A DNA stretch of 63,394 nt, filler included, from Chrysochromulina tobinii (lineage: Eukaryota): NCBI GenBank assembly GCA_001275005.1. It is 9 parts of 9 records of this genome, joined end to end, with 100 filler letters (N's around TTAATTAATTAA, not from the genome) between each part and the next. Parts side by side here need not be neighbours in the genome. Positions count along the whole stretch, not along the records: positions 47,790 to 51,163 come from JWZX01000503.1; 8 more parts are not named here. One strand, written 5' to 3'. Position 1 is the first letter of the stretch; each line of letters begins with the position of its first letter. This document shows positions 5,777 through 51,697 of this stretch, one piece after another. Position numbers and translations under genes: made by a program. The notes beneath the pieces were generated by a model that did not search any database, had not been told where the DNA came from, and saw only the letters and a program-made list of their open reading frames with translations.

Positions 5777-8719
5777 CTAGGCCTGCATGCTAGTAGGGTG
5801 TGAGAGGCTCCTTTCCATCGGCGATACCAAACAGGCCGAAATCAAACTGTCGCTTGGGTAGCCAAAGCCTGGCTTGAGCGGCTTCTTGTTTCCCGCCAAA
5901 ATTTGGTCTTGGAGCAGCTGCTCGAGCCGGGGGACCACTTCGTGAAACTCGGGCCGCTCTGAAGTTTCCAGTGCCCAGCAATCCTTGAGAAGGCTCTGCA
6001 AGTCAGCGGGCCATCTGGGGTCGATCTTGGGATGGAACCCTTTTGCGACCGCCTTCTTGAAGAGCTCGGGCGAGGAGAACTCGAGGAAGGGCTTCCTATG
6101 GCTGCATATCTCCCACAGGACGGAGGCGAACGAGTACACCTCGGCCTTGTGATTGTAATTTTGCGAGTTGGCCACCTCGGGCGCCATGTAGCGCATCGAG
6201 CCGCACTCGCCTGTGAGCTTGCGCGGTATGTCGTCAAAGGCCTCGCCATGCCGCCAGAGCGAGGCGAGTCCAAAGTCGAAAAGCACGAGCTCGCCGGTGG
6301 CCAGGAAGCCAATGTTGTTGGGCTTCACGTCACGGTGCAGGATGCGGTAGCCCGGGAACGCGTCGTCGTGGCAATACTGAAGCGCGCGCGAGAGCTGCAG
6401 CCCACAGTTGAGGCACCGCATCAGTGGCCACGCCTTGACCTCGCGCCAGCGCACCCAGAATGGGATCGTGTCTGGGTCACGCGGGAGCTCTTTGTTGAGC
6501 ACCGTGGCGAGCAGCTCGATGATGACGAAGGGCTTCCCCTCGAGCTGGCCGAGCGCATACGCGTTGAGCACGTTCGGGTGGTCCATCAGGGTCATCAGCA
6601 TGATCTCACGCTTGATACCACGGAGTGCGCCAATCGAATTCTGCTTCGCCGGCTTGAGCATCTTGATCGCCACCTTCTCGCCGTCCAACGTGGTCCTGTG
6701 CGCCGTCGCGAACTCACCCTCTCCGAGATATTTCATCTCCCCGAGCGAGGTCCACTCCACAGCGCGCACTTGCTCGGGCAGCTTCCCCTTGACCATAAGC
6801 TGCACGCCACGCAGGTCGGACTCCTCGTCCCTTATGGATTTAAAGCCACCCTCCACGGCATTGCTCACGGGATTGCCATGGCCATCATCCACGTCTAAGA
6901 CTGAGTGCCATCCGCGCGTCGGGTCTGCGTTGCGCATAGGACGCTTTTTCATGCTTTGGCTCACAGCCCACGGCACGACGGCCTCGTCGTCTTCTAGGGT
7001 CTTTGACCCGTCCATCTTCGAGCCGTCCATGTCGCCCGATCCTGTCGGGCGGCCCACGACGAGATGGTCGAAGAGACCCGCGAGCGAGAAACCTCTGGTA
7101 TTAGACATGCTTCCCTTGCTGCGGCGGAGAGGGGTAGGGCTCCCGCCACTGCGAGGAGGTAATGACTCGACCACAATATGAGTAGCAGGCCGGCGTGGCT
7201 CATGTTTCAGCATGCCAGCGTCGTCCCAGGTCACAAACTCCGCTGGGGGGCGAACTCGGCCCGGGCTTGGGCTTCGGATCACTTGCACGGCAGCGTCGTC
7301 GAGCTCGGGACGATCGGGCTCGCCGGCGGACTCATATGTGCGAAATGCGTTCCCGGCTTTGACCGACATCTCGTGCCTCTTGTCGGGCGGCCGCTGCCTT
7401 TCCGGTAGCGGAGTAGATAGGGGGCTGCTATCGGCGGATTCCGGGACCCTGCGTACGCGAAGAGACGGGTCGGCGACAGCAAACACGGCGTCGGCGCTGT
7501 TTGATCGAGCGCGGACGCCCTTGCCCTTGAGCGCACTCCCGAGCACACTGTGCTCCTTGGACGAGTCCGAGTCTTCGTCCTCGTTCTCTTCGACCTCAGA
7601 GGATTTGACACGGCGCAGAAACGACCGCCCCCCCTCAGACTCGAAGCCATCTTTCACGCGTTTAGGGAGGTTGCCCTCTTTGGAGCCGTCGTCCAGAGTT
7701 GGCCCAAAGAGGATGACGCACGCGGTGGTGTCGTCGGTGAGTCCGCGCTTGGAGATGGCCGTCTTGACCACCTTGGCTGCCGCTGACTTGCCGTCCGAGT
7801 AATCACCCGAGATCAAGACGGCCGCCGCCTCCTGCGCACTCAGGTGATCCCACACGCCATCAGAGCACGCCACCAGCGCACCGCCCATCGGGGGAACCTT
7901 CCGGGTAACAAAGGAAGGCTCGGGCAACACGAAGGCCGCACAGTCGGCATCGCCGATGCCTCGGGTGACTGCCAGCCCTCCCGGGAAGGCTCGGATTGGC
8001 CCTCCGGGCTGGCCATTGGGGTCAATCGCCCGGCCGAGCGTCGCACCCTTTGCCACAACACGCAACTGCTCCTGCTGGTTTTCCTCGAGGCGATGGCTGA
8101 CGCCGAGCTCGATGTAGCCGTCATTCTCGACGAGCAGCGCCATCGAGTCGCCCACATTCCAACAAGACACTTCGCCGCGCGTCGCATTCACGCAGATTAC
8201 GGTGAGCGTCGAACCCGCCTTCCTCTCACCGGTGTCAAATTTCGAGCTGCACACCTCCTCGTGAACCTTCTTGAAGACGGCGTTACACGCCACGTTCAGC
8301 GCCGCGGCGGACCCGTCTGCCGCCGAGGCACAGATCTGTTGCAATACCCGCGAGCTGATGTAGGTAGACACATGGCTGCCGCCATGCCCATCGGCCACGA
8401 GGATGCACGTGATCGAGTCTCCACATATGATGTCCTGACGCGTCGCAAAGCAATCCTCGCCCTTGAGGGAGCGTTGAAAGCCGCCCACCATGAATTTCGT
8501 CTCTGATTTAGTGCCGAGTGAGGCCACTGCCACGCTATCGCGGCACTTGGGCTTAGTTGGGGTGCGAAATCCAAGGCTGGACGCAGCATGTAAATCGCTA
8601 CTTGTATCCCACGGCCACCTCCACCCCTTCATCTCAGATGAGGGCGATCCCATGCAGGGGAATCGTCCAGCTTCTCCTTGTGTTTTCTTTGGATAAAGGA
8701 GCGAAACTTTCCAGTCCAA
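5777..8719 (-). CDS. PP2C (PPM) phosphatase fused to a C-terminal TKL-like protein kinase
   Basis: PP2C motifs GED, ADGHGG, NVGDS, LAVTRGIGD, SDGVWD, DDTT; kinase motifs GEGEFA, VAIK, HRDVKPNN, DFG, YMAPE, all in one uninterrupted ORF. Start codon uncertain. Confidence 0.88.
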   Translation of the reverse strand: MDWKVSLLYPKKTQGEAGRFPCMGSPSSEMKGWRWPWDTSSDLHAASSLGFRTPTKPKCRDSVAVASLGTKSETKFMVGGFQRSLKGEDCFATRQDIICGDSITCILVADGHGGSHVSTYISSRVLQQICASAADGSAAALNVACNAVFKKVHEEVCSSKFDTGERKAGSTLTVICVNATRGEVSCWNVGDSMALLVENDGYIELGVSHRLEENQQEQLRVVAKGATLGRAIDPNGQPGGPIRAFPGGLAVTRGIGDADCAAFVLPEPSFVTRKVPPMGGALVACSDGVWDHLSAQEAAAVLISGDYSDGKSAAAKVVKTAISKRGLTDDTTACVILFGPTLDDGSKEGNLPKRVKDGFESEGGRSFLRRVKSSEVEENEDEDSDSSKEHSVLGSALKGKGVRARSNSADAVFAVADPSLRVRRVPESADSSPLSTPLPERQRPPDKRHEMSVKAGNAFRTYESAGEPDRPELDDAAVQVIRSPSPGRVRPPAEFVTWDDAGMLKHEPRRPATHIVVESLPPRSGGSPTPLRRSKGSMSNTRGFSLAGLFDHLVVGRPTGSGDMDGSKMDGSKTLEDDEAVVPWAVSQSMKKRPMRNADPTRGWHSVLDVDDGHGNPVSNAVEGGFKSIRDEESDLRGVQLMVKGKLPEQVRAVEWTSLGEMKYLGEGEFATAHRTTLDGEKVAIKMLKPAKQNSIGALRGIKREIMLMTLMDHPNVLNAYALGQLEGKPFVIIELLATVLNKELPRDPDTIPFWVRWREVKAWPLMRCLNCGLQLSRALQYCHDDAFPGYRILHRDVKPNNIGFLATGELVLFDFGLASLWRHGEAFDDIPRKLTGECGSMRYMAPEVANSQNYNHKAEVYSFASVLWEICSHRKPFLEFSSPELFKKAVAKGFHPKIDPRWPADLQSLLKDCWALETSERPEFHEVVPRLEQLLQDQILAGNKKPLKPGFGYPSDSLISACLVSPMERSLSHPTSMQA

Positions 8720-8884
8720 AAGAGGTTTGTACAGAGGGTTATTTTAGTCCATTGTCGCCATTTTTGGAAAAACTTGAAAGTGGACACACATCGGCCGTGG
8801 ATGGCTGCCCAGCGCTCAGTGAGTGAGAGCCCAGCGACTACATGTGCGGTGCGCCATGTCGGTGGCATGTGCCTTGTGCGGATG

Positions 8885-9580: not shown

Positions 9581-10240
9581 TCACGTCTGCTCGACGAGCA
9601 GGAGCATGCGCAGCGCCGTGACGCCCTCGTTAACCTCGGTGAACTCGGGCTTGCACGTGAGATCGATGGCCTCCTCCTCGATGTTCTTGCGCGCGATCGC
9701 GATCGCCTTGATGGCCTGGTTGGCCGCAGCCGCGCCGATGGCCGTGATCACCATGCGATGGCCCTCACGCGCGAAGCTCGAGATGGCGCCCGCGAGGACC
9801 TTGGCGTCGGTGCCGGAGGCGGCCTTGAGCGCCTGCGCCTCATCCTCGCCGCTGCGCGCGCGGCGCGTCTTCTTGCGGATCAGCAGCAACAGGCCCGTAT
9901 GGCCGTCCTCGAGCTGGAAGAACTCGGGCTGCACGCAGATGTCGATCGACTGCGACTCCTTGAGGAAAGTTCGCGCGATGGCAATGGCCTTTACAGCCTG
10001 GTTGGTCGCCTGCGGACCGATTGCCTGCAGAGTTGGGCAGTCGACGGGCGCACGCGCCTGCGCCGCGATGAGCATCGCAACGTCGCGAGGGTTGGACGAA
10101 TTCCCCATCTTGGTGAGGTTGTTGCCGCGGGCGATGCGGTCGTAAAAGGTGTGGCTCATGTGGTTCGGGGGGCGCTTGGACTGCGTGTCTGGTTGCTCGA
10201 CCGCGTCGTCGCCAGTGGGCCCTCCATCGGAGACGTCCAT
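9581..10240 (-). CDS. Tandem two-domain SpoVS-family protein
   Basis: Two copies of the SpoVS signature: AIGPQATNQAVKAIAIAR...ICVQPEF and AIGAAAANQAIKAIAIAR...LTCKPEF. Confidence 0.85.
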   Translation of the reverse strand: MDVSDGGPTGDDAVEQPDTQSKRPPNHMSHTFYDRIARGNNLTKMGNSSNPRDVAMLIAAQARAPVDCPTLQAIGPQATNQAVKAIAIARTFLKESQSIDICVQPEFFQLEDGHTGLLLLIRKKTRRARSGEDEAQALKAASGTDAKVLAGAISSFAREGHRMVITAIGAAAANQAIKAIAIARKNIEEEAIDLTCKPEFTEVNEGVTALRMLLLVEQT

Positions 10241-10441
10241 GACAATGAGTCGTATGTCGCACTCACTCGCGACTACACGAATCCGAGTTCCAACGCGTTG
10301 GCAATTCGGCTTCGCGCAGTGGGGAAATGGAGTGTAGTGCCGCAGAGGATGTGTAGAGCTCGACAGGACGCGCAGTGTCGCCGCACGTTTGCCCAGAATC
10401 GTTCGCGCCGAGTTTGACCCGCGTAGTTCCTAGTGCCCCTC

Positions 10442-13747: not shown

Positions 13748-15863
13748 CTACCGGAACCGGGGGTCCGCGTTAGTTTGGTTCCCGCCGCTGCGGCTCATTC
13801 CGCCGCCCATCATTCCGCCGCCCGTCATGCCGCCACCGCCCATCATGCCGCCGCCCATCGGCGCACCGCCCATCGGCGCACCGCCCATCGGCGCGCCGCC
13901 CATCGGCGCGCCGCCCATCATTCCGCCGCCCATCATTCCGCCGCCCATCATGCCGCCGCCCATCATGCCGCCGCCCATCACGCCACCGCCCATCGGCGCG
14001 CCACCCATTATGCCGCCGCCCATCATGCCGCCGCCCATGCCGCCGCCCATGCCGCCGCTCATGCCGCCCGGCATGCCACCCATCTGGCCGGGCATGCCGC
14101 CACCCATCTGGCCGGGCATGCCGCCGCCTATTTGGCCGGCCATGCCGCCGCCCATTTGGCCGGCCATGCCGCCGCTGCCACCGCCGCGCGCGCCACCGCC
14201 CGATTGCCCCAACATTTGCATGAGCATGCGTTGCTGCGGCGTCCCCCCCATCGCACTGGCAAAAGCACCCATGCCGCCCATCCCCGTCCCCATGCCACCG
14301 CCCATCCCACTGCCCATGCCACCGCCCATCCCACTGCCCATCCCACCGCCCATGCCACCCATGCCTCCCATCTGCGCAGCGACCAAGCCGGGCCCTCTCA
14401 TCCCCATGCCAGCCATACCGGCGCACATGCTGCCTCCGCTGCCCGTCACCCCCATCGCGCCCATGCAGCTGCCGGCGGCGGCGGCCCCCATCCCATTCCC
14501 GGCTACGGCAGGGCCACCCTCGGCCGCCGGCGCCGCCGAGGCCGCGGGCGTGCTGTCCGCCGCGGCCGGCGGCGGCGCCTGTCGCACGGAGCGCAGCGGG
14601 TGCTCGGCGAGTGTCGGTATGGTCATGCCGTCGGCAAAAGGCACGGTGTCGCCACTCCCATCGCGGACGGACCAAGTGTTGTCATCGCTTGCAAAGACCT
14701 CGAGGCGCCCCTGCTCGTCCCACGGGATGCGCGTGCCGTCCATCAGAGGCAATCAATAGGCAATCACGAGGCAATGAACGACACTCAACTGCTCGTCCCA
14801 CGGGATGCGCGTGCAATCCATCAGAGGCAATCACGAGGCCATGAACGACACCCACCTTGGGGACGAGCTCCGCCAGCGACGTGTTGAGCGCCTCGAGCGT
14901 GCTCACCGTACGCCATCCGCCCGAACCAAGCGTGAGCTCGCCCAACGGGCGCAGGCGCACGATCTCTGTGGCATGCAACTTGACCACCACGTCACCCGTC
15001 CCTCTCTCCTGATCCACTTCGAGGCGAGACGAGGCGAACTGCCCCGGCTCGGGCGCGGCCATGCGCGTGCGCGCCACCTTGAGCGGCGGCTGCTGCTGGT
15101 GCTCCCCGTCGGCCGGCCTTTTCTCCGCCGTTGAGGCGGCCATTGAGGCGGCTGCGGCCGCGGCCCTCTCGGCCGCCGCCGCGCTGTCCGCGGCAGCCCT
15201 CTCGGCAGCGGCGGCGAGCTGGGCGGCCCTCTGCTCGGCTGCCTTCTCGGCGGCGGCCTTTGCCTCGGCCGCACGCATCTCGGCCGCCGCAGCCTCGGCT
15301 GCCACCCTCTCGGCCGCCGCCTTCTCTGTGGCCGCCTTCTCAGCCGCTGCTTTCCGGGCAGCCGCCTCTTCCTCAATGAGCTTGGCGACGGCCGCGTTGC
15401 CCAGCACTGTCGCGAGCTCGACCGCGCTCACGCCCGTCGGTCCGGGCTCGATTCTCGCGCCCGCCTTGAGCAGCGATGCGGCGACCGTCTTCGAGCCAGC
15501 GATCACCGCGTGCATGAGCGGCGACAAGCCATCCAGGTCTAGCGCATTGACGTCGGCGCCCGCGGCGATGAGTCTATCGACGCAACGCGTCGCATTCTCG
15601 ATGACCGCGAGCACAAGCGGCGTCTGGCCGCTCTCGCGCTCACGCACGTCCACGCCCGCACCCGCTTCGAGCAGCGCGATGACTGCGGCGAGGTGGTCGA
15701 AGCATGCGGCCGCACAGAGCGGCGTCCGGCCATCGACCGGATGGCCCCAGTCGACGCACGCTCCCTCGCCCACGAGCCGCGTCACGCCGTCTGCTCTCCC
15801 GTGGCGCGCCTCCCAGAAAAGTCCCTCGCTGACCGACGCCGCCGCGCCCGCCTCGGACGCCAT
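13748..15863 (-). CDS. Ankyrin-repeat protein with coiled coil, small globular domain and Gly/Met-rich tail (intron 14711-14855)
   Basis: Ankyrins GRTPLCAAA, GQTPLVLAV, GLSPLMHAV; a phase-0 GT-AG intron joins ORF 14682..15863 to ORF 13748..14752 (VPK|GRLEV); tail of GGM repeats ending DPRFR. Confidence 0.75.
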
Positions 15864-26964: not shown

Positions 26965-27340
26965 CTCTTGACTGCCTGCTGAGCTGTCGGAAAACTGATG
27001 GCGTCATCCAAGTCGTGACTGACCTCCTGGAGAGCAGCGTCACGTACTAGGCGAGAACAAGTGAAAGGGTCGGGGCCGAGGGCGTACTCACGGCTGTATC
27101 GAACGAATCCGGCGGCGACGAGCCTCGCGCCGCGCTCAGAATGCACGTAGGATATGGGTAGACTGCGAAGGTGCGAGCTCGACGGGTGTTCCTTGCTAGC
27201 CGCGAGAAGCCCTCGCACTTCGGAAGCTACAGTGGTGCCGGGGTGACGGCCAGGCACTCCGGCATTTGGGGATAGTAGGAGAGCGCGGAGGGCGGTGGCG
27301 TGAATGACGCATTCGATGGTGGTGGTGACGGGCCCACGGC
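26962..27340 (-). pseudogene. N-terminal half of the family-A/TV-Pol-like domain
   Basis: SREY...SRLVRDAAL...HDLDDAISFPT (27003-27014, motif A-like); frameshifted from the RT ORF at about 27260-27360. Confidence 0.6.
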
Positions 27341-29503
27341 GGCGTTCAAGCCACGCGGACCAATCGTGAAGGCGGTTCTGGCGGTCGCGTAAATGGATCC
27401 ACGCTCCATTGCAGCGGACGGGGTGTCTGAGCTATCGCCGACGAGGATGGCTGTAATCGCTTTGGCGTAGAGGCAAGCGGACCAGAAGTTGTCGACCGCC
27501 GTGCAGGTTGATCCGCTGGGAAGGTTCTTGAGCACTGCAGGCGCAAGCTCCCCGTACTTTCGAAGGTGGTACTTCAACAGAGCCCGGTCTATCATCCTGT
27601 GAAAGGAAAGACCATGCTGGTCGTCCGTAAAGTTGATAAAGGCGCTATCGGGCAATAGCTGGATGGCTGCCCGCAGGGTATTGACGTCGACGGTCACCCG
27701 GAGGAGCGCTGCAAGCTTATGACCGCCGTCTCCACTACGCTTTCGCTGGGCAAGATCGGCGAGTGGCAATTGTCGGACGAGCCCATACTCTGCAGGGGCG
27801 TAAGGAGGGATGATCCCATCGGCAGCATCCGCCATTGCCCACCCCCGTCGCCCTGGCACAGGCGCTACATGGCACGCAATGATAGCCCCAAGGAGGACTG
27901 CGAGTTCACGCCGAGCCTCACTCGCCCCGAGCTCGACTGCCCGTGGGTGCGCTGAAAGGATGTCATCGACGCCTAAGAAATCCCCATGAGTCTCGTCGCA
28001 CAGGTTAGCGAGTTCAGCTATGCCGCCAGCGGCGAGTATGGGGCAGAAAGTGACGCCCTTGGCGCGTAGCCGCGAGTAGAGGGGCCCGTGCCAAAGTCCG
28101 ACCCAGTCCTCAGGGTATCCCGGCCAGCGCTCTGCGCGGAGGGGGGACCATTCCGCGAAGTGACAATCAACCAGCGGGAGATAACCAGCACCAAGCTGAC
28201 AAAGGATCCACATAGGGCGCTCGATGACGTTGTCCAGACGGAGGAATTCAGAGACGGGGCCAAGGAGGATGCCTTGAGGCCCGAAGGTAAGCTGGCGAAG
28301 GCCGTAGGTCCACAGAACTCGAGCGACGGCATGGTGGGCACGATCGGCGGCTGGTGTATGGACGGGCGATGCCAGTGCGTTGACAAGAGTCATGGCCGCT
28401 GCCGCCATCAAGGCCGGCCATACGTGGGCAGTGCCGTAGCCGGAGACGAAGGCAGCGGGGCCTGCGACGTTGACAAAGAAATGCGCCAGGTCGTCGTTGG
28501 CCGGCGCAGTAATCCCTCCCGGTTGGGCGTGGAGTTGGATGCGTGGCGATGAGTACGAGCGCCGCGGGCCCTTGACTCCCGCGCCTTGAAAACATTTTCG
28601 GCTCGCAGGTCCCAACCTTCCCTCGATATCTTCAAAAGATCCCCCGAAGCAGGTGCCGTAGAAGAAAGCATTCCCGTACACGCCCAGACCAGCACACCCG
28701 GTGGCTATTCTCCTGCTCGTGTGAGAAGTCGTAGCTTGAGCTCCACATGCCGAGATCTTTGTTTTGAGGGTGGCGAGGCCAATATTGTTGTGGTTTCCAT
28801 CCATGCGCGTCGCCATACCGCAGTACAGATAGTGTTCGCTGATGAGAAGGTTGGGGATGAGGCGAGGGGGGTCATTCGGCCGAAGCCCCGCAATGAAGAA
28901 GTCCTTTTGCGTTTCAGTGGGGACAAGGGTTCCGTTGCGTGCTCGCTTGTACTCGAGCGCCTGCACCACCGTCTTGTCCTTGCCCTTGATGTTGAGCTGA
29001 CAGTCAGTTATGCGGCTCCAGATGGACCAGAAAACCGTAACTCTCTGAAGGAAGTCAGCGTCCCCCGTAGCGTTTGCCGCGTCGTCCACGAAAACCAACA
29101 TGCCTAATTCTAGTCCAGCTCCGTCCGGTGCGAAGGCCGAGTAGCCGGAGACCTTAAGCTCAAGTGCCTGAGCGATAGTGTCCATCATGATTTTACACGC
29201 TTCGGGCGACCCTTGCGCACCCTGGAGGAAGCCGCGCAAGATTGGGAATGGGTCGGTCGCACCAAACGCCGTCTCATACCGCCCTTGCGCCACGCCGTGC
29301 TTCCAGTTATCCACGAGCCCTCGAAGAGCCCGTAGCGCAGCCTCAGGAACACCAATGTGACGCATTGCCATAGCGGCGGCCGTGCGGGAGAATGACATGA
29401 AGCACTTCGTGAGGTCGACATAAAGGACATAAAGAGGTTTGCGCCGTGCGAGGGCGTCGTCGATGCACAGATGTAGGGCGAATGCTTGCTCAGTGCATCC
29501 TCG
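27227..29503 (-). pseudogene. Reverse transcriptase (LINE-type) region
   Basis: Frame open from a stop at 29504-29506 through LYVDLTKCFMS, QGAQGSP, FVDD, LNIKGKDK and YLYCG. Confidence 0.85.
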
Positions 29504-47689: not shown

Positions 47690-48179
47690 NNNNNNNNNNN
47701 NNNNNNNNNNNNNNNNNNNNNNNNNNNNNNNNNTTAATTAATTAANNNNNNNNNNNNNNNNNNNNNNNNNNNNNNNNNNNNNNNNNNNNGACATGAGCGC
47801 TGTGGCCTCGTCGGACGACGCGGGCGACTCGAAGTCTGAGTAAGCTTGTTGGCGACGCTCCGGAGCGTCACCAAAGGACGACAGGGGAGAGCACCAAAGG
47901 ACGACAGGGGAGAGTTCGCCGTCGGCCTTGGGGACGTTCACACGGCATCGCCGAGAAATGCCAAATCTGGAAAACCCAGACGTATTTTATTTCCCTCATC
48001 AAGGGGCGGAGTAACCACACCAAGGCTCACATCACGGCTGGAACTATCGCCAGCTTGGCGTGTACGCCCAGCGTGTTGCACGGACGGCCGTGCGGATACG
48101 CCGAGACAGTTCGGGCATGCTGCGGATTGTGAGAGTAATGAGGGCGCGTGGACGAGCATGGTGCATGGACTGGGTCACG

Positions 48180-48405
48180 GGGAGACGTGGGGTTTGTTAT
48201 CGAATTTGGGTGGGTTTGTTACGTATCAGGATACGTATCCTATGAATCTTGCATGTAATTGCATGTATCTTGACGTGTTCCGTTGCCTATACATAACTAA
48301 CATACTCATACAAGCATATCATACATCATCAGATAACAACCGAGATACTAGTCAGATACTAGAGAAGATACATCGAGATACATCAAGATACATTTGTATC
48401 TGTCA
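48180..48405. repeat. Diverged relative of the GATACA MITE-like element
   Basis: GACGTGGGGTTTG...GGATACGTATCCT...CAAGATACATTTGTAT matches 32918-33072. Confidence 0.65.
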
Positions 48406-48799
48406 CTTTGGCTATCATAGAACCTCGTTCACACCCCATCTGCGCGAAAAAGGACAAGGAAGAAAGAACTGAGCCCATGCGAGCCCTCCAGATCCCAGAT
48501 GTCCACCACGGCACAAAATGCATAATGCAACGCGGGAACGCCCCCATGGAACGCCCCTCAGCCTCACACACGACATCCGTTAGACATCCCACACGTTTTC
48601 ACCGCACTGACAGGCATACCTCGTGCCCAGGAGAAGCAAGGGCGAAAAAAGTACATGGTACAGATAGTTTTGCGGCACGGCGCTGCCTTTTCCGACTCAC
48701 AACAAGAATTTGTTCCATCAAGCATCTCGGAGATCCGCCTCAGTGCCTCCCTCACCCTCTTCTCCTCCACTGTGCTTGATGTGGCCACACGCCCCGCGT

Positions 48800-50785
48800 T
48801 CACGCCGAGCCGTCAAGCAACTGATCTCGGCGATTCGAGCCGTCGCCCGCGCGCAGGATGGGAACGCTGCCCGCGACGACGCTCGCGAGCTCCTCGGAGG
48901 CCAATCGCTTGGCCGTTGGCACGAAGAGGAGCGTCACCAGCATGCCGAGCACGCTCACGCCTGCACAGATGAGGTAGACGCCGTCGAGCCCGACGACGTC
49001 CATGATCACCTCGAAGCTGGCAGAGCCGATGAGTGCGCCAACCTTGCCCAAGCCCGCGCACACGCCGAAGCAGGTCGATCTCACCGCCGTTGGGAAAATT
49101 TCGGTAGGCAGGGTGTACCTGATCAAGGAGGCCATCCGAGGCACTCAGATGGCACTCAGATGGCACTCAGATGGCACTCATAAGCTATGCGTGGCCATCA
49201 AGAGGCCATCAAGAGGCCATCAAGAGGCCATCTGGCACAATCAGCCGCAATCAGCGTACGTCGACACGTTAGGGCCAAAAGCGAGTGAGAATTCCAAGGC
49301 ACAGAAGAGGCCGAACTTGAGGCCACTCGAAGCCTTGGCGAGCACCGCCGCCGCCAACGCCACGCAAGTGGCGGTCTGCAAAAGGAACCCATACGCCTGC
49401 AGCGTTCGCCCCGACCAATAGTAGAGGGCGAAGATGGCGAGAACGACCCCCGGGATGCCCGTGCACATGAGCACAATATCGTGCCAGCAGTTGTCGTAGA
49501 GCGACTCAGACTCTCCGAAGACCGCGTTCACGATGACCACCTGACGAGGGAGCCAATCAGCCGCCATCAGCCGCCATCAGCCGCCATCAGCCGCCATCAG
49601 CGACCCTCAGCGACCATCAGAGAGGAAAAGCGAGCAAGCCTCCCTAATCTGGCAACCATGAAGAGAGCCGATTCAAGGGAGGAACTCACCTTGTTGACAG
49701 ACGAGCCGTAGCAGACAAAGTCGTACAGGAACCAGCTGAGGCCACAACCCGTCAATCTCCCGAGGAGCTCCGGATGATCTCTCACGACGCGCAGAGGGCC
49801 ACGCTTGTCGGCGGTGCGCGCGCTCACGTACTCATGACTTTCGCTCGAGTAGTACGTGAGAAGCATCACAATGAGCGTGGGCACTGCGGCGAAGAGGGAG
49901 GTCATCAGAGAGGTTATCAGAGGCCATCAGAAGTCATCAGAGTTCAGCAGAGGTCAGCAGAGGTAATCATACGCCATCAGCGACCATGAGACGCACTCAG
50001 ACGCACTCAGACGCACTCAGACGCATTCAGAGCCGACCTCACCTGCGCCCAGCCCAAGCAGCAGACGGAAGTCGAAGCTCGTTGCCGCCATGTGCTCGGC
50101 GCCGTAATTGTCCTTGCCGCCGATGAGCAGCAGCAGCAGCGCCACCACGTACGGCAGCATCGAGCCAGGTGTCTGCCAGAAGAAGCCTGCGGGAAGCGGC
50201 GGTCATCACTGGCACTCAGAGGTCTTCAGAGGTCCTCAGAGGCACTCAGAGGTCCTCATAGGTCCTCACAGGCACTCAGAGGCACTCAGAGGTCCTCAGA
50301 GGTCCTCAGAGGTCCTCAGAGGTCCTCAGAGGTCCTCAAAGCCAGATGTCTGCCAGAGAAAGCTTGTGGCGCCCTCGACGACGAGTTTGGGCTCCGAGGC
50401 CATTGGGGGGCACTCAGAGGTCACTCCAGAGGGCACTCCAGAAGGCACTCAGAGGTCACTCCAGAGGGCACTCCAGAGGGCACTCAGAGGGCACTCAGAA
50501 GGCACTCAGAGGGCACACAGAGTGTAGACCGAGGGCCATCATCAGAGGGCCATGAGCGCCATCATCAGAGGGCCTTCATCAGAGGGCCTTCACACCTTTG
50601 GCCACCTCGATGGATGGATTCGGCCCCTTCGAGGCTGGGGGAAGCAGGGGTGGCTCCTGCGTCGTTGTGGGCGCTCGGACGGCCTCATCTCGCTCGTTCT
50701 CGCGCATCATGGTAGCCGTCAGCGGGTACTTGCCGCCCACGCCCACGCCCAGCACGAAGCGGCACGCGCCCATGACGCTGTAGAT
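48800..50785 (-). CDS. MFS inorganic phosphate transporter, PHO84/Pht1-like (5' part not resolved; introns 50187-50595, 49884-50042, 49541-49689, 49119-49259)
   Basis: RFVLGVGVGGKYPLTA, WFLYDFVCYG, FGPNVSTYTLPTEIFPTAVRSTCFG...GKVGA. All four GT-AG introns give in-frame joins. Confidence 0.88.
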
Positions 50786-51697
50786 CTAACGCGTGGACGC
50801 AGGGCCAAACGCGGCGAGAAAGAGAGCAAGAGACACCATGGCTCCACTCAACAACCAAAACACAAGCACCCACGTACCCACTAATTCCCCACAGAGAATT
50901 CCCCACAGTGGTTACTGACTAAACCTGACTAAACTAACAGGTACTTCCGTATAAGGGATGATTTGGCGCACTGAGCATGCACATGCCCCGTGATACTGCG
51001 CGACACCACCGTTCCGTTGCACGAAATCGTGGCGGCCAGCAACCGCGTGCCAGTTTGCCCGATGTCGGTTGAGGATGCCAGCAACGCTGAGATGGACGGC
51101 GAGGACGGCGGTGACGAGGTTGACGACCACGACCTGGAACAGCTGCAGCACATCTTGTGCGAGNNNNNNNNNNNNNNNNNNNNNNNNNNNNNNNNNNNNN
51201 NNNNNNNTTAATTAATTAANNNNNNNNNNNNNNNNNNNNNNNNNNNNNNNNNNNNNNNNNNNNTCTCGGATGACCCCTGATGACCACTGACTTGACCACA
51301 ATCAGTGGCAATCTGAAGCCATCCGCGAGATCGCACCTGTGAATGTGAACGGGAGGCGGGAGCGAGGGAGGTGGTGACGGCGGCTGAGGAGATGGAGGCG
51401 GAGGCGGCGGCGGCGAAGGCGGCGGTGGCGACGGCGGCGGAGGAGACGGAGGCGGAGGCGGTGGCGGTGAAGGCTCCCCCACCGCCGCCACCGCCCTCGC
51501 CACCTCCGCCCTCGCCTCCGCCCTGCCGCTGCTGTCCCAGCTCGTCGCCGACCCGCGTCTTCTCCAGCAACTCTCGGAGCGCTGGTTGCACTCGCTCCAA
51601 GATTTCGCGCCGAGCTGGCGAGTCCGGTGACTCTCATCACTGCTCAAGCTTGCGAGAGCGTTTTCACCTTGCGCGCTTCGTTACACGCCTTGAGGCG

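Follow-up and report, generated by a model that had tools for sequence, protein, structure and literature searches.

How does an intron come to hold, within genomic DNA, a copy of the exon-exon junction that its own removal creates? The origin of new introns outside the known introner families is still open, and few introns retain a readable record of it. The intron considered here lies in Chrysochromulina tobinii (assembly GCA_001275005.1), in a window of 63,394 nt, by which we mean the whole stretch of DNA that was analysed. The parts of the window that bear on the question are these:

47790-51163, no strand assigned: source piece (3.4 kb), between two N-padded linkers
48800-50785, minus strand: host gene, 3' part of an MFS transporter in a five-exon model, predicted PHS-type phosphate transporter
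50596-50785, minus strand: exon A, matched by an X16 RNA contig over 50595-50786 with 1 difference
50627-50596, minus strand: B, the last 32 nt of exon A, source of the copy's upstream half
50187-50595, minus strand: intron 1, 409 nt, GT-AG, phase 1, from a 409-nt RNA joint
50396-50595, minus strand: donor and first satellite block (sat1), about 200 nt in 11-14-bp units, found by TRF
50364-50395, minus strand: B', the decayed counterpart of B (exon A, last 32 nt)
50340-50363, minus strand: C', the copy of C (exon B, first 24 nt)
50187-50339, minus strand: second satellite block (sat2, 10-bp unit) with the working acceptor, 153 nt, from TRF and RNA
50043-50186, minus strand: exon B, RNA contigs with 0 differences
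50186-50163, minus strand: C, the first 24 nt of exon B, source of C'
48800-50042, minus strand: rest of the gene, exons C-E with introns 2-4, stop at 48802-48800
50042-49884, minus strand: intron 2, 159-nt RNA joint
49689-49541, minus strand: intron 3, 149-nt RNA joint
49259-49119, minus strand: intron 4, 141-nt RNA joint

On its domain profile and named homologues, the host gene is predicted to be a PHS-type phosphate:H+ symporter of the MFS. The exon model is 58-62% identical to the homologues P0001 and P0002, exon E matches Pfam Sugar_tr (PF00083, E 4.5e-9), as does P0001, and the homologues bear the JGI name "PHS family inorganic phosphate transporter-like". A FastTree tree built on 83 rows, from which short fragments, P0047-P0055 and the L028 contig were omitted, puts the model inside a 20-row clade (support 100) with a Prymnesium parvum protein, which makes a haptophyte source likely. 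The 5' exons of the gene are absent from the window, and RNA contigs exit it at 50786.

Inside intron 1, minus-strand 50378-50340 matches the spliced junction without gaps at 11/15 upstream and 21/24 downstream positions. This is the 32/39 match that an earlier note had read from the sequence, and the best ungapped match is longer, with 41 matches over 56 nt (50395-50340). The satellite that the same note had placed on both sides of the copy is also there, in TRF arrays spanning 50408-50592 (arrays 50408-50522 and 50531-50592) and 50215-50338. When the 160-nt spliced junction is aligned locally to the intron, it scores 66, against a mean of 23.7 (sd 4.2) and a maximum of 45 in 2000 dinucleotide shuffles, which argues against chance; when the other 160-mers of the window, 2893 in all, are aligned to the copy region, none exceeds 43. 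The junction copy in intron 1 is confirmed. Its upstream half agrees with the end of exon A at 20/32 positions (binomial 2.8e-5 in a fixed register) and with the intron's own 3' end at 10/32, and this difference rules out a duplicated acceptor as the origin of B'. The spliced junction reads AAG/GC, an AG/GY proto-splice site (the slash marks the splice point), and intron 1 splits a Lys/Gly codon there, ahead of the conserved FFWQ motif. In the copy, B' ends ACAA where exon A has AAAG, and the internal junction has no AG in register. The register of the junction is otherwise exact, ungapped and free of any intron remnant, and two duplications would give the same.

RNA contigs join 50595 to 50186 as a GT-AG intron in three of the four runs examined (X12, X14 and X16), so the splice sites assumed in the earlier note are the real ones. 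Six runs were listed, the evidence is limited to assembled contigs, in which rare splicing intermediates would be invisible, and the sequencing runs, all from cultures of one kind, may sample populations that are not independent. The copy segment serves as an exon in none of the 15 RNA joints listed, of 16, and the signature of a stwintron or recursive intron is likewise missing, with no working internal splice signal in the copy and no two-step splicing in the RNA contigs. One contig from the X12 RNA library does span 50335-50438 at depth 2.7, as might be expected if the copy were a used alternative exon, but unspliced RNA or DNA would also explain it, and the copy has an invariant Phe and an invariant Pro altered and, entered from any of three candidate acceptors, runs into stops within 3-24 codons whatever the frame. 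An assembly chimera is excluded by the 27% divergence of the copy, which is also carried by a second assembly, L028, whose 10 differences in the intron all lie within sat2, and by DNA contigs of runs X6 and X8 that extend from exon B through the copy. Taken together, chance, a chimera or a used exon would be a barely credible account of this segment.

The copy is a dead, local one. It agrees with the host gene at 31/39 positions and with 37 homologous loci at 27/39 or fewer, its depth in the DNA runs is exon-like, and there is no extra close copy at 85% likeness; the closer match to the host and the lack of extra depth rule out a diverged paralogue as the source. Summed depth on the satellite units exceeds 10,000, against about 60 on exons. 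In X6 and X8, a DNA joint 50340-50479 would delete the copy; its short side is 35 satellite letters, and it probably derives from another locus. Over 18 codons the copy has 15 differences, spread 5:5:5 by codon position (11 nonsynonymous and 4 synonymous), and it decays without protein constraint. It is likely without function now, and the whole is a real, unusual and probably neutral fossil. Its two halves have diverged unequally, with 20/32 positions retained in B' and 21/24 in C' (Fisher p=0.065), or 11/16 and 21/24 when the conserved part alone is compared (p=0.23), an age difference that is non-significant either way and is to be read knowing that the exon A linker itself evolves fast.

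That linker has a peculiarity of its own. It exceeds its counterpart in the nearest homologues by about 17-20 residues, and 50636-50651 within it resembles the intron 1 acceptor (14/17), possibly as old intron sequence that has become exon, or else by chance.

We consider it moderately probable that the copy was put together by two local duplications of DNA, one older than the other, meeting at the splice point. In the first step, an intron would have been born at the AG/GC site by insertion or tandem duplication, in an event that repeated at least the last 32 bases of the upstream exon, with B' as the 3' end of the intron and the source of its acceptor AG; CAG would have come from the AAG of B' by an A-to-C change. 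In the second and later step, a satellite stretch of about 150 bases, bringing a new acceptor, would have been inserted 24 bases into the downstream exon, duplicating those 24 (up to 30) bases and shifting the working acceptor downstream. B' and C' would then have come to adjoin each other within the intron, and the internal AG would have been lost afterwards. Recursive splice sites read AG/GY, and the internal AG/GC just after the second step could have been one. No RNA template would be required. The order of events, the intermediate and the insertion agent are what we infer; what favours two stacked duplications is the state of the relative P0072, the more decayed B', a Lys-to-Thr change shared by P0072 and the window, and boundary repeats of both polarities on L028. 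The two satellite blocks differ in unit length, and each is at least as large as a whole intron of this gene. Counting against two duplications, the right end of the copy keeps no donor remnant apart from a GT-to-TT look-alike.

P0072, a predicted protein of 69 aa from a close relative, is encoded on an ENA contig of 541 nt and is known as protein only. Its start matches the in-frame reading of intron 1 at 11/14 residues up to the end of B', after which the real exon B follows at once (47/47 residues) and then a read-through of intron 2 (7/8); C' and sat2 are missing. At the end of B', P0072 and the window both read Lys-to-Thr, the change that would turn AAG into CAG. On its sequence, P0072 may be the intermediate predicted between the two duplications. 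At its junction the codon is for Arg, where an intact CAG/GC acceptor predicts Gly; explaining the Arg takes a shift of 1 nt, a gene call with a corrected frame, a C'/C deletion or an assembly collapse. If P0072 is a real C'/C deletion, then it is neutral between one-step and two-step origins, which the other explanations are not; if it is an assembly collapse, then C' must be nearly identical to C in that genome, which again makes C' younger than B'. Among 7 of the 38 matches from 1.84 billion representatives, no second record has B' beside exon B. A search of 50% clusters added P0089 and P0090, which are ORFs starting at a Met inside exon B and are uninformative on intron 1.

The same features can be set against a single repair event, in which a break in the satellite of an already existing intron would have been mended by copying some 56-85 junction-spanning bases from a nearby template that lacks the intron (spliced RNA, its cDNA or an allele), both ends rejoining satellite and P0072 arising by a later C'/C deletion. 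The exact register would then come in one step, and spliced RNA directs end-joining in human cells, according to the accessible part of PMC11390984. On its left, the copy grades into sat1 while keeping a weaker, gapped likeness to exon A that extends B' to about 50427; this extension past -32, which only 0.2% of 1500 random coding 35-mers outscore (P=0.002, uncorrected), could have guided a template switch. The window also holds a 758-aa frame (27227-29503, minus strand) with a weak RVT_1 match (E 2.1e-6, below the Pfam cut-off), on that match likely a retroelement. At the right end, however, no microhomology is found (P=1.0 in the window, 0.40 on L028). A single repair also predicts halves of equal age and no allele with B' beside exon B, requires an extra deletion to explain P0072, and is not helped by the 10 DNA joints listed from 4 runs, none of which deletes intron 1, in contigs that drop rare variants. 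We regard it as unlikely. The earlier note had offered both two successive duplication-insertions and mRNA- or cDNA-templated repair, and had held that either way the copy points to intron gain. The first of these is the best supported, and the second is made less likely by P0072 and the unequal decay; the "either way" is wrong, because a cDNA patch needs a pre-existing intron and is silent on its origin.

Gain is nevertheless likely from a survey of homologues, because the position of intron 1 is empty in them. Of 37 other loci from a metagenome scan, 36 have an uninterrupted Lys-Gly codon, and the remaining one, L037, is a very distant match with an acceptor-like site nearby and is ambiguous. 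About 22 of the 36 intron-less loci are visibly genomic, having introns elsewhere or lying on long contigs, and all of these are outside the 20-row clade. Inside the clade, all seven of seven read-through ORF clusters cross the site unbroken and then enter non-homologous, intron-like tails; they were assigned by the tree (P0019, P0026/62/63 and P0028) or by best match (P0073/86, P0074/87, P0077/88 and P0078), while P0013/59 and P0029 were omitted because their tails are too short to judge, and the count leans to absence because a gene with no break there is easier for an ORF search to pick up. The nearest relatives are about 62% identical (about 66% or less among the intron-less). Judged by these sequences, intron 1 was likely gained on the lineage of the window, at a loosely dated point, with loss elsewhere possible.

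Several homologous ORFs (P0071, P0073/74, P0076-P0082, and within these P0077 and P0078) leave the family alignment at various points of the FFWQ region, a pattern that suggests repeated independent intron gains within about 10 nt. If such introns had once stood at about -32, 0 and +24 in alleles or paralogues of the host gene, then recombination between their satellites could have trapped a former exon of 52-56 nt and so produced a mosaic. The same ORFs have separate intron-like breaks 15-25 nt downstream of the intron 1 site, sat2 on L028 begins donor-like with one G-to-T change, and at least two gene copies or haplotypes exist. Three intron-bearing variants would be needed, though, and none is seen in this organism; there is no clear acceptor before B', and the homologues with nearby breaks are distant. 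Such a recombination seems to us very improbable.

The two stacked duplications can also be judged against other introns. Repeats of 10-11 bp abound in haptophyte introns, which frequently use GC donors. Satellite introns are few in the window, being limited to the host gene's four and one at 14.8 kb. The satellite patterns had no match in viral_contigs and matched 17 loci in genome_contigs, of which L046, L055 and L056 looked like algal introns and L055 yielded one complete intron. These three are short contigs with the same satellite introns inside bacterial metagenome-assembled genomes, and they look like algal contamination. None of the seven other introns examined contains a junction copy, and their junction scores are 12-24, compared with 66 for intron 1; the eight introns compared are dissimilar end to end. 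Two of the seven do have repeats anchored at a boundary, one of each polarity, and both belong to a DHFR-TS-like gene on L028:

L028 3510-3627: predicted satellite intron, repeat of 10/12 nt with the start of the downstream exon
L028 3727-3835: predicted satellite intron, repeat of 8/8 nt with the end of the upstream exon

Both repeats score 8, against maxima of 6 and 5 in 56 mismatched pairs each. The two introns are predictions, and the name of the gene comes from reading its sequence. When the window was scanned for triples of donor, copy and acceptor without annotation, the 5672 matches were mostly coding repeats and uninformative.

The fifth satellite intron of the window bears on a further account of the copy:

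14711-14855, minus strand: predicted 145-nt intron that doubles a shorter one as two near-copies in tandem, with TT for GT at the inner donor

Local tandem duplications, this doubled intron included, are common in the window, and tandem duplication at a proto-splice site is documented, in the accessible parts of PMC2891723 and PMC3443670. A tandem array of three AG/GC exon units, spliced between the donor of the first and the acceptor of the last, would give the exact register automatically, the middle unit being the copy and the outer ones having been overwritten by satellite. Yet the outer units leave no trace (the 5' end of the intron matches the start of exon B at 4/20, and its 3' end matches the end of exon A at 8/20) while the middle retains 73%, and unequal halves are not predicted. 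The present boundaries of intron 1 repeat just 2 nt upstream and 1 nt downstream. A triplication thus appears decidedly unlikely, less so than the mosaic and more so than the single repair.

How two stacked duplications relate to known systems can be stated within the limits of the cited sources, each of which was accessible in part. Introners carry one splice site in the insert and recruit the other from the target duplicate, with both polarities known, and those of Chrysochromulina sp. bring the 5' site and co-opt the 3' site; their target duplications are 4-8 nt, and the full datasets may include longer ones (10.1101/2022.06.06.494994; 10.1101/2020.10.14.339549). Intron 1 would share with them a splice site taken from the target duplicate, but its repeats are 24-32 nt or more, an excess over those 4-8 nt that counts against the two duplications, and both polarities would be stacked at one site. 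An introner family consists of near-identical introns at unrelated sites, and only some families have terminal inverted repeats; here, high copy number belongs only to the satellite.

In repair-associated gain (PMC3443670, PMC2809761), too, new intron sequence is bracketed by an exon copy, but the Drosophila repeats are 8-18 bp and lie at the intron boundary, while those of intron 1 are longer and buried mid-intron; short flanking repeats occur in Drosophila at 25% of gained and 26% of conserved introns (PMC3443670), and their presence around old introns too counts against the support from the two L028 introns. Tandem genomic duplication (PMC2891723, PMC3443670) likewise uses an AG/GY site and leaves exon-derived sequence in the intron, but a single event leaves swapped pieces at the intron ends, unlike the mRNA order found here mid-intron between two satellites. 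RNA-guided end-joining or RNA-templated repair would also leave an exon-exon junction in DNA, but its outcomes are intron deletions or exon-exon joins, not a copy inside a retained intron (PMC11390984). Fungal stwintrons (PMC8469720) similarly have two intron units nested or back to back, but in intron 1 the internal AG is lost and two-step splicing is not seen. By analogy, then, the copy would behave like intron gain with a duplicated target, while being neither a typical introner nor a simple tandem-duplication intron. The accessible main text of PMC12130899 has no mention of haptophytes, and what is accessible of PMC3488318 served as background. No title or abstract opening in the literature covered, outside of which most subscription papers fall, describes an intron with its own junction.

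If two stacked duplications are the true origin, then intron 1 keeps an older and a younger footprint, a relative may keep the intermediate, and finding an exon-exon junction in genomic DNA would not suffice to demonstrate reverse transcription or RNA-templated repair. The scope is one neutral locus with a history that we infer. Beyond it, we offer only tentatively the possibility that satellite introns of this haptophyte lineage are made by insertions that duplicate a long and variable target (8 to more than 30 nt) in both polarities and reuse AG/GY sites, so that stacked hits would build spliced-looking junctions without RNA, via a back-to-back (recursive) splice state, and could be read in order as dated steps of intron birth and extension. 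A cheap genome-wide test of the origin of haptophyte satellite introns would be to compare single-sided long repeats with full junction copies.

The gene and its surroundings show further irregularities, beginning with the element next to exon A:

50787-50995, no strand assigned: 209-bp high-copy repeat adjoining exon A in this assembly

Its summed contig depth runs to thousands, equivalent to tens of copies, where exons have about 60; no inverted termini and no further copy within the window were found. DNA contigs of 1035 nt in X1 and X6 carry different sequence beyond 50786, as do RNA contigs, and the latter also show a variant at 50638. The repeat seems to interrupt one gene copy. Within exon B, X6 and X8 have four differences at 50147-50175, one of which changes an invariant Gln to Met, a variant also present in P0089 and P0090, and in the exon D region (49260-49540) RNA contigs differ from the window at 23 positions. 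A second haplotype or paralogue of the host gene is present, and the window looks like a mosaic of two gene copies. L028 agrees with the window at 98% over the gene, but after the 3' UTR the two are entirely different (from 48605 in the window and 2228 on L028), and there L028 runs into the DHFR-TS-like gene.

Elsewhere in the window, a minus-strand frame at 9581-10429 holds two SpoVS domains (PF04232, E 8.5e-36), a bacterially named family on a eukaryotic contig, and a 988-aa frame at 5777-8743 (minus strand) combines a PP2C phosphatase with a protein kinase domain.
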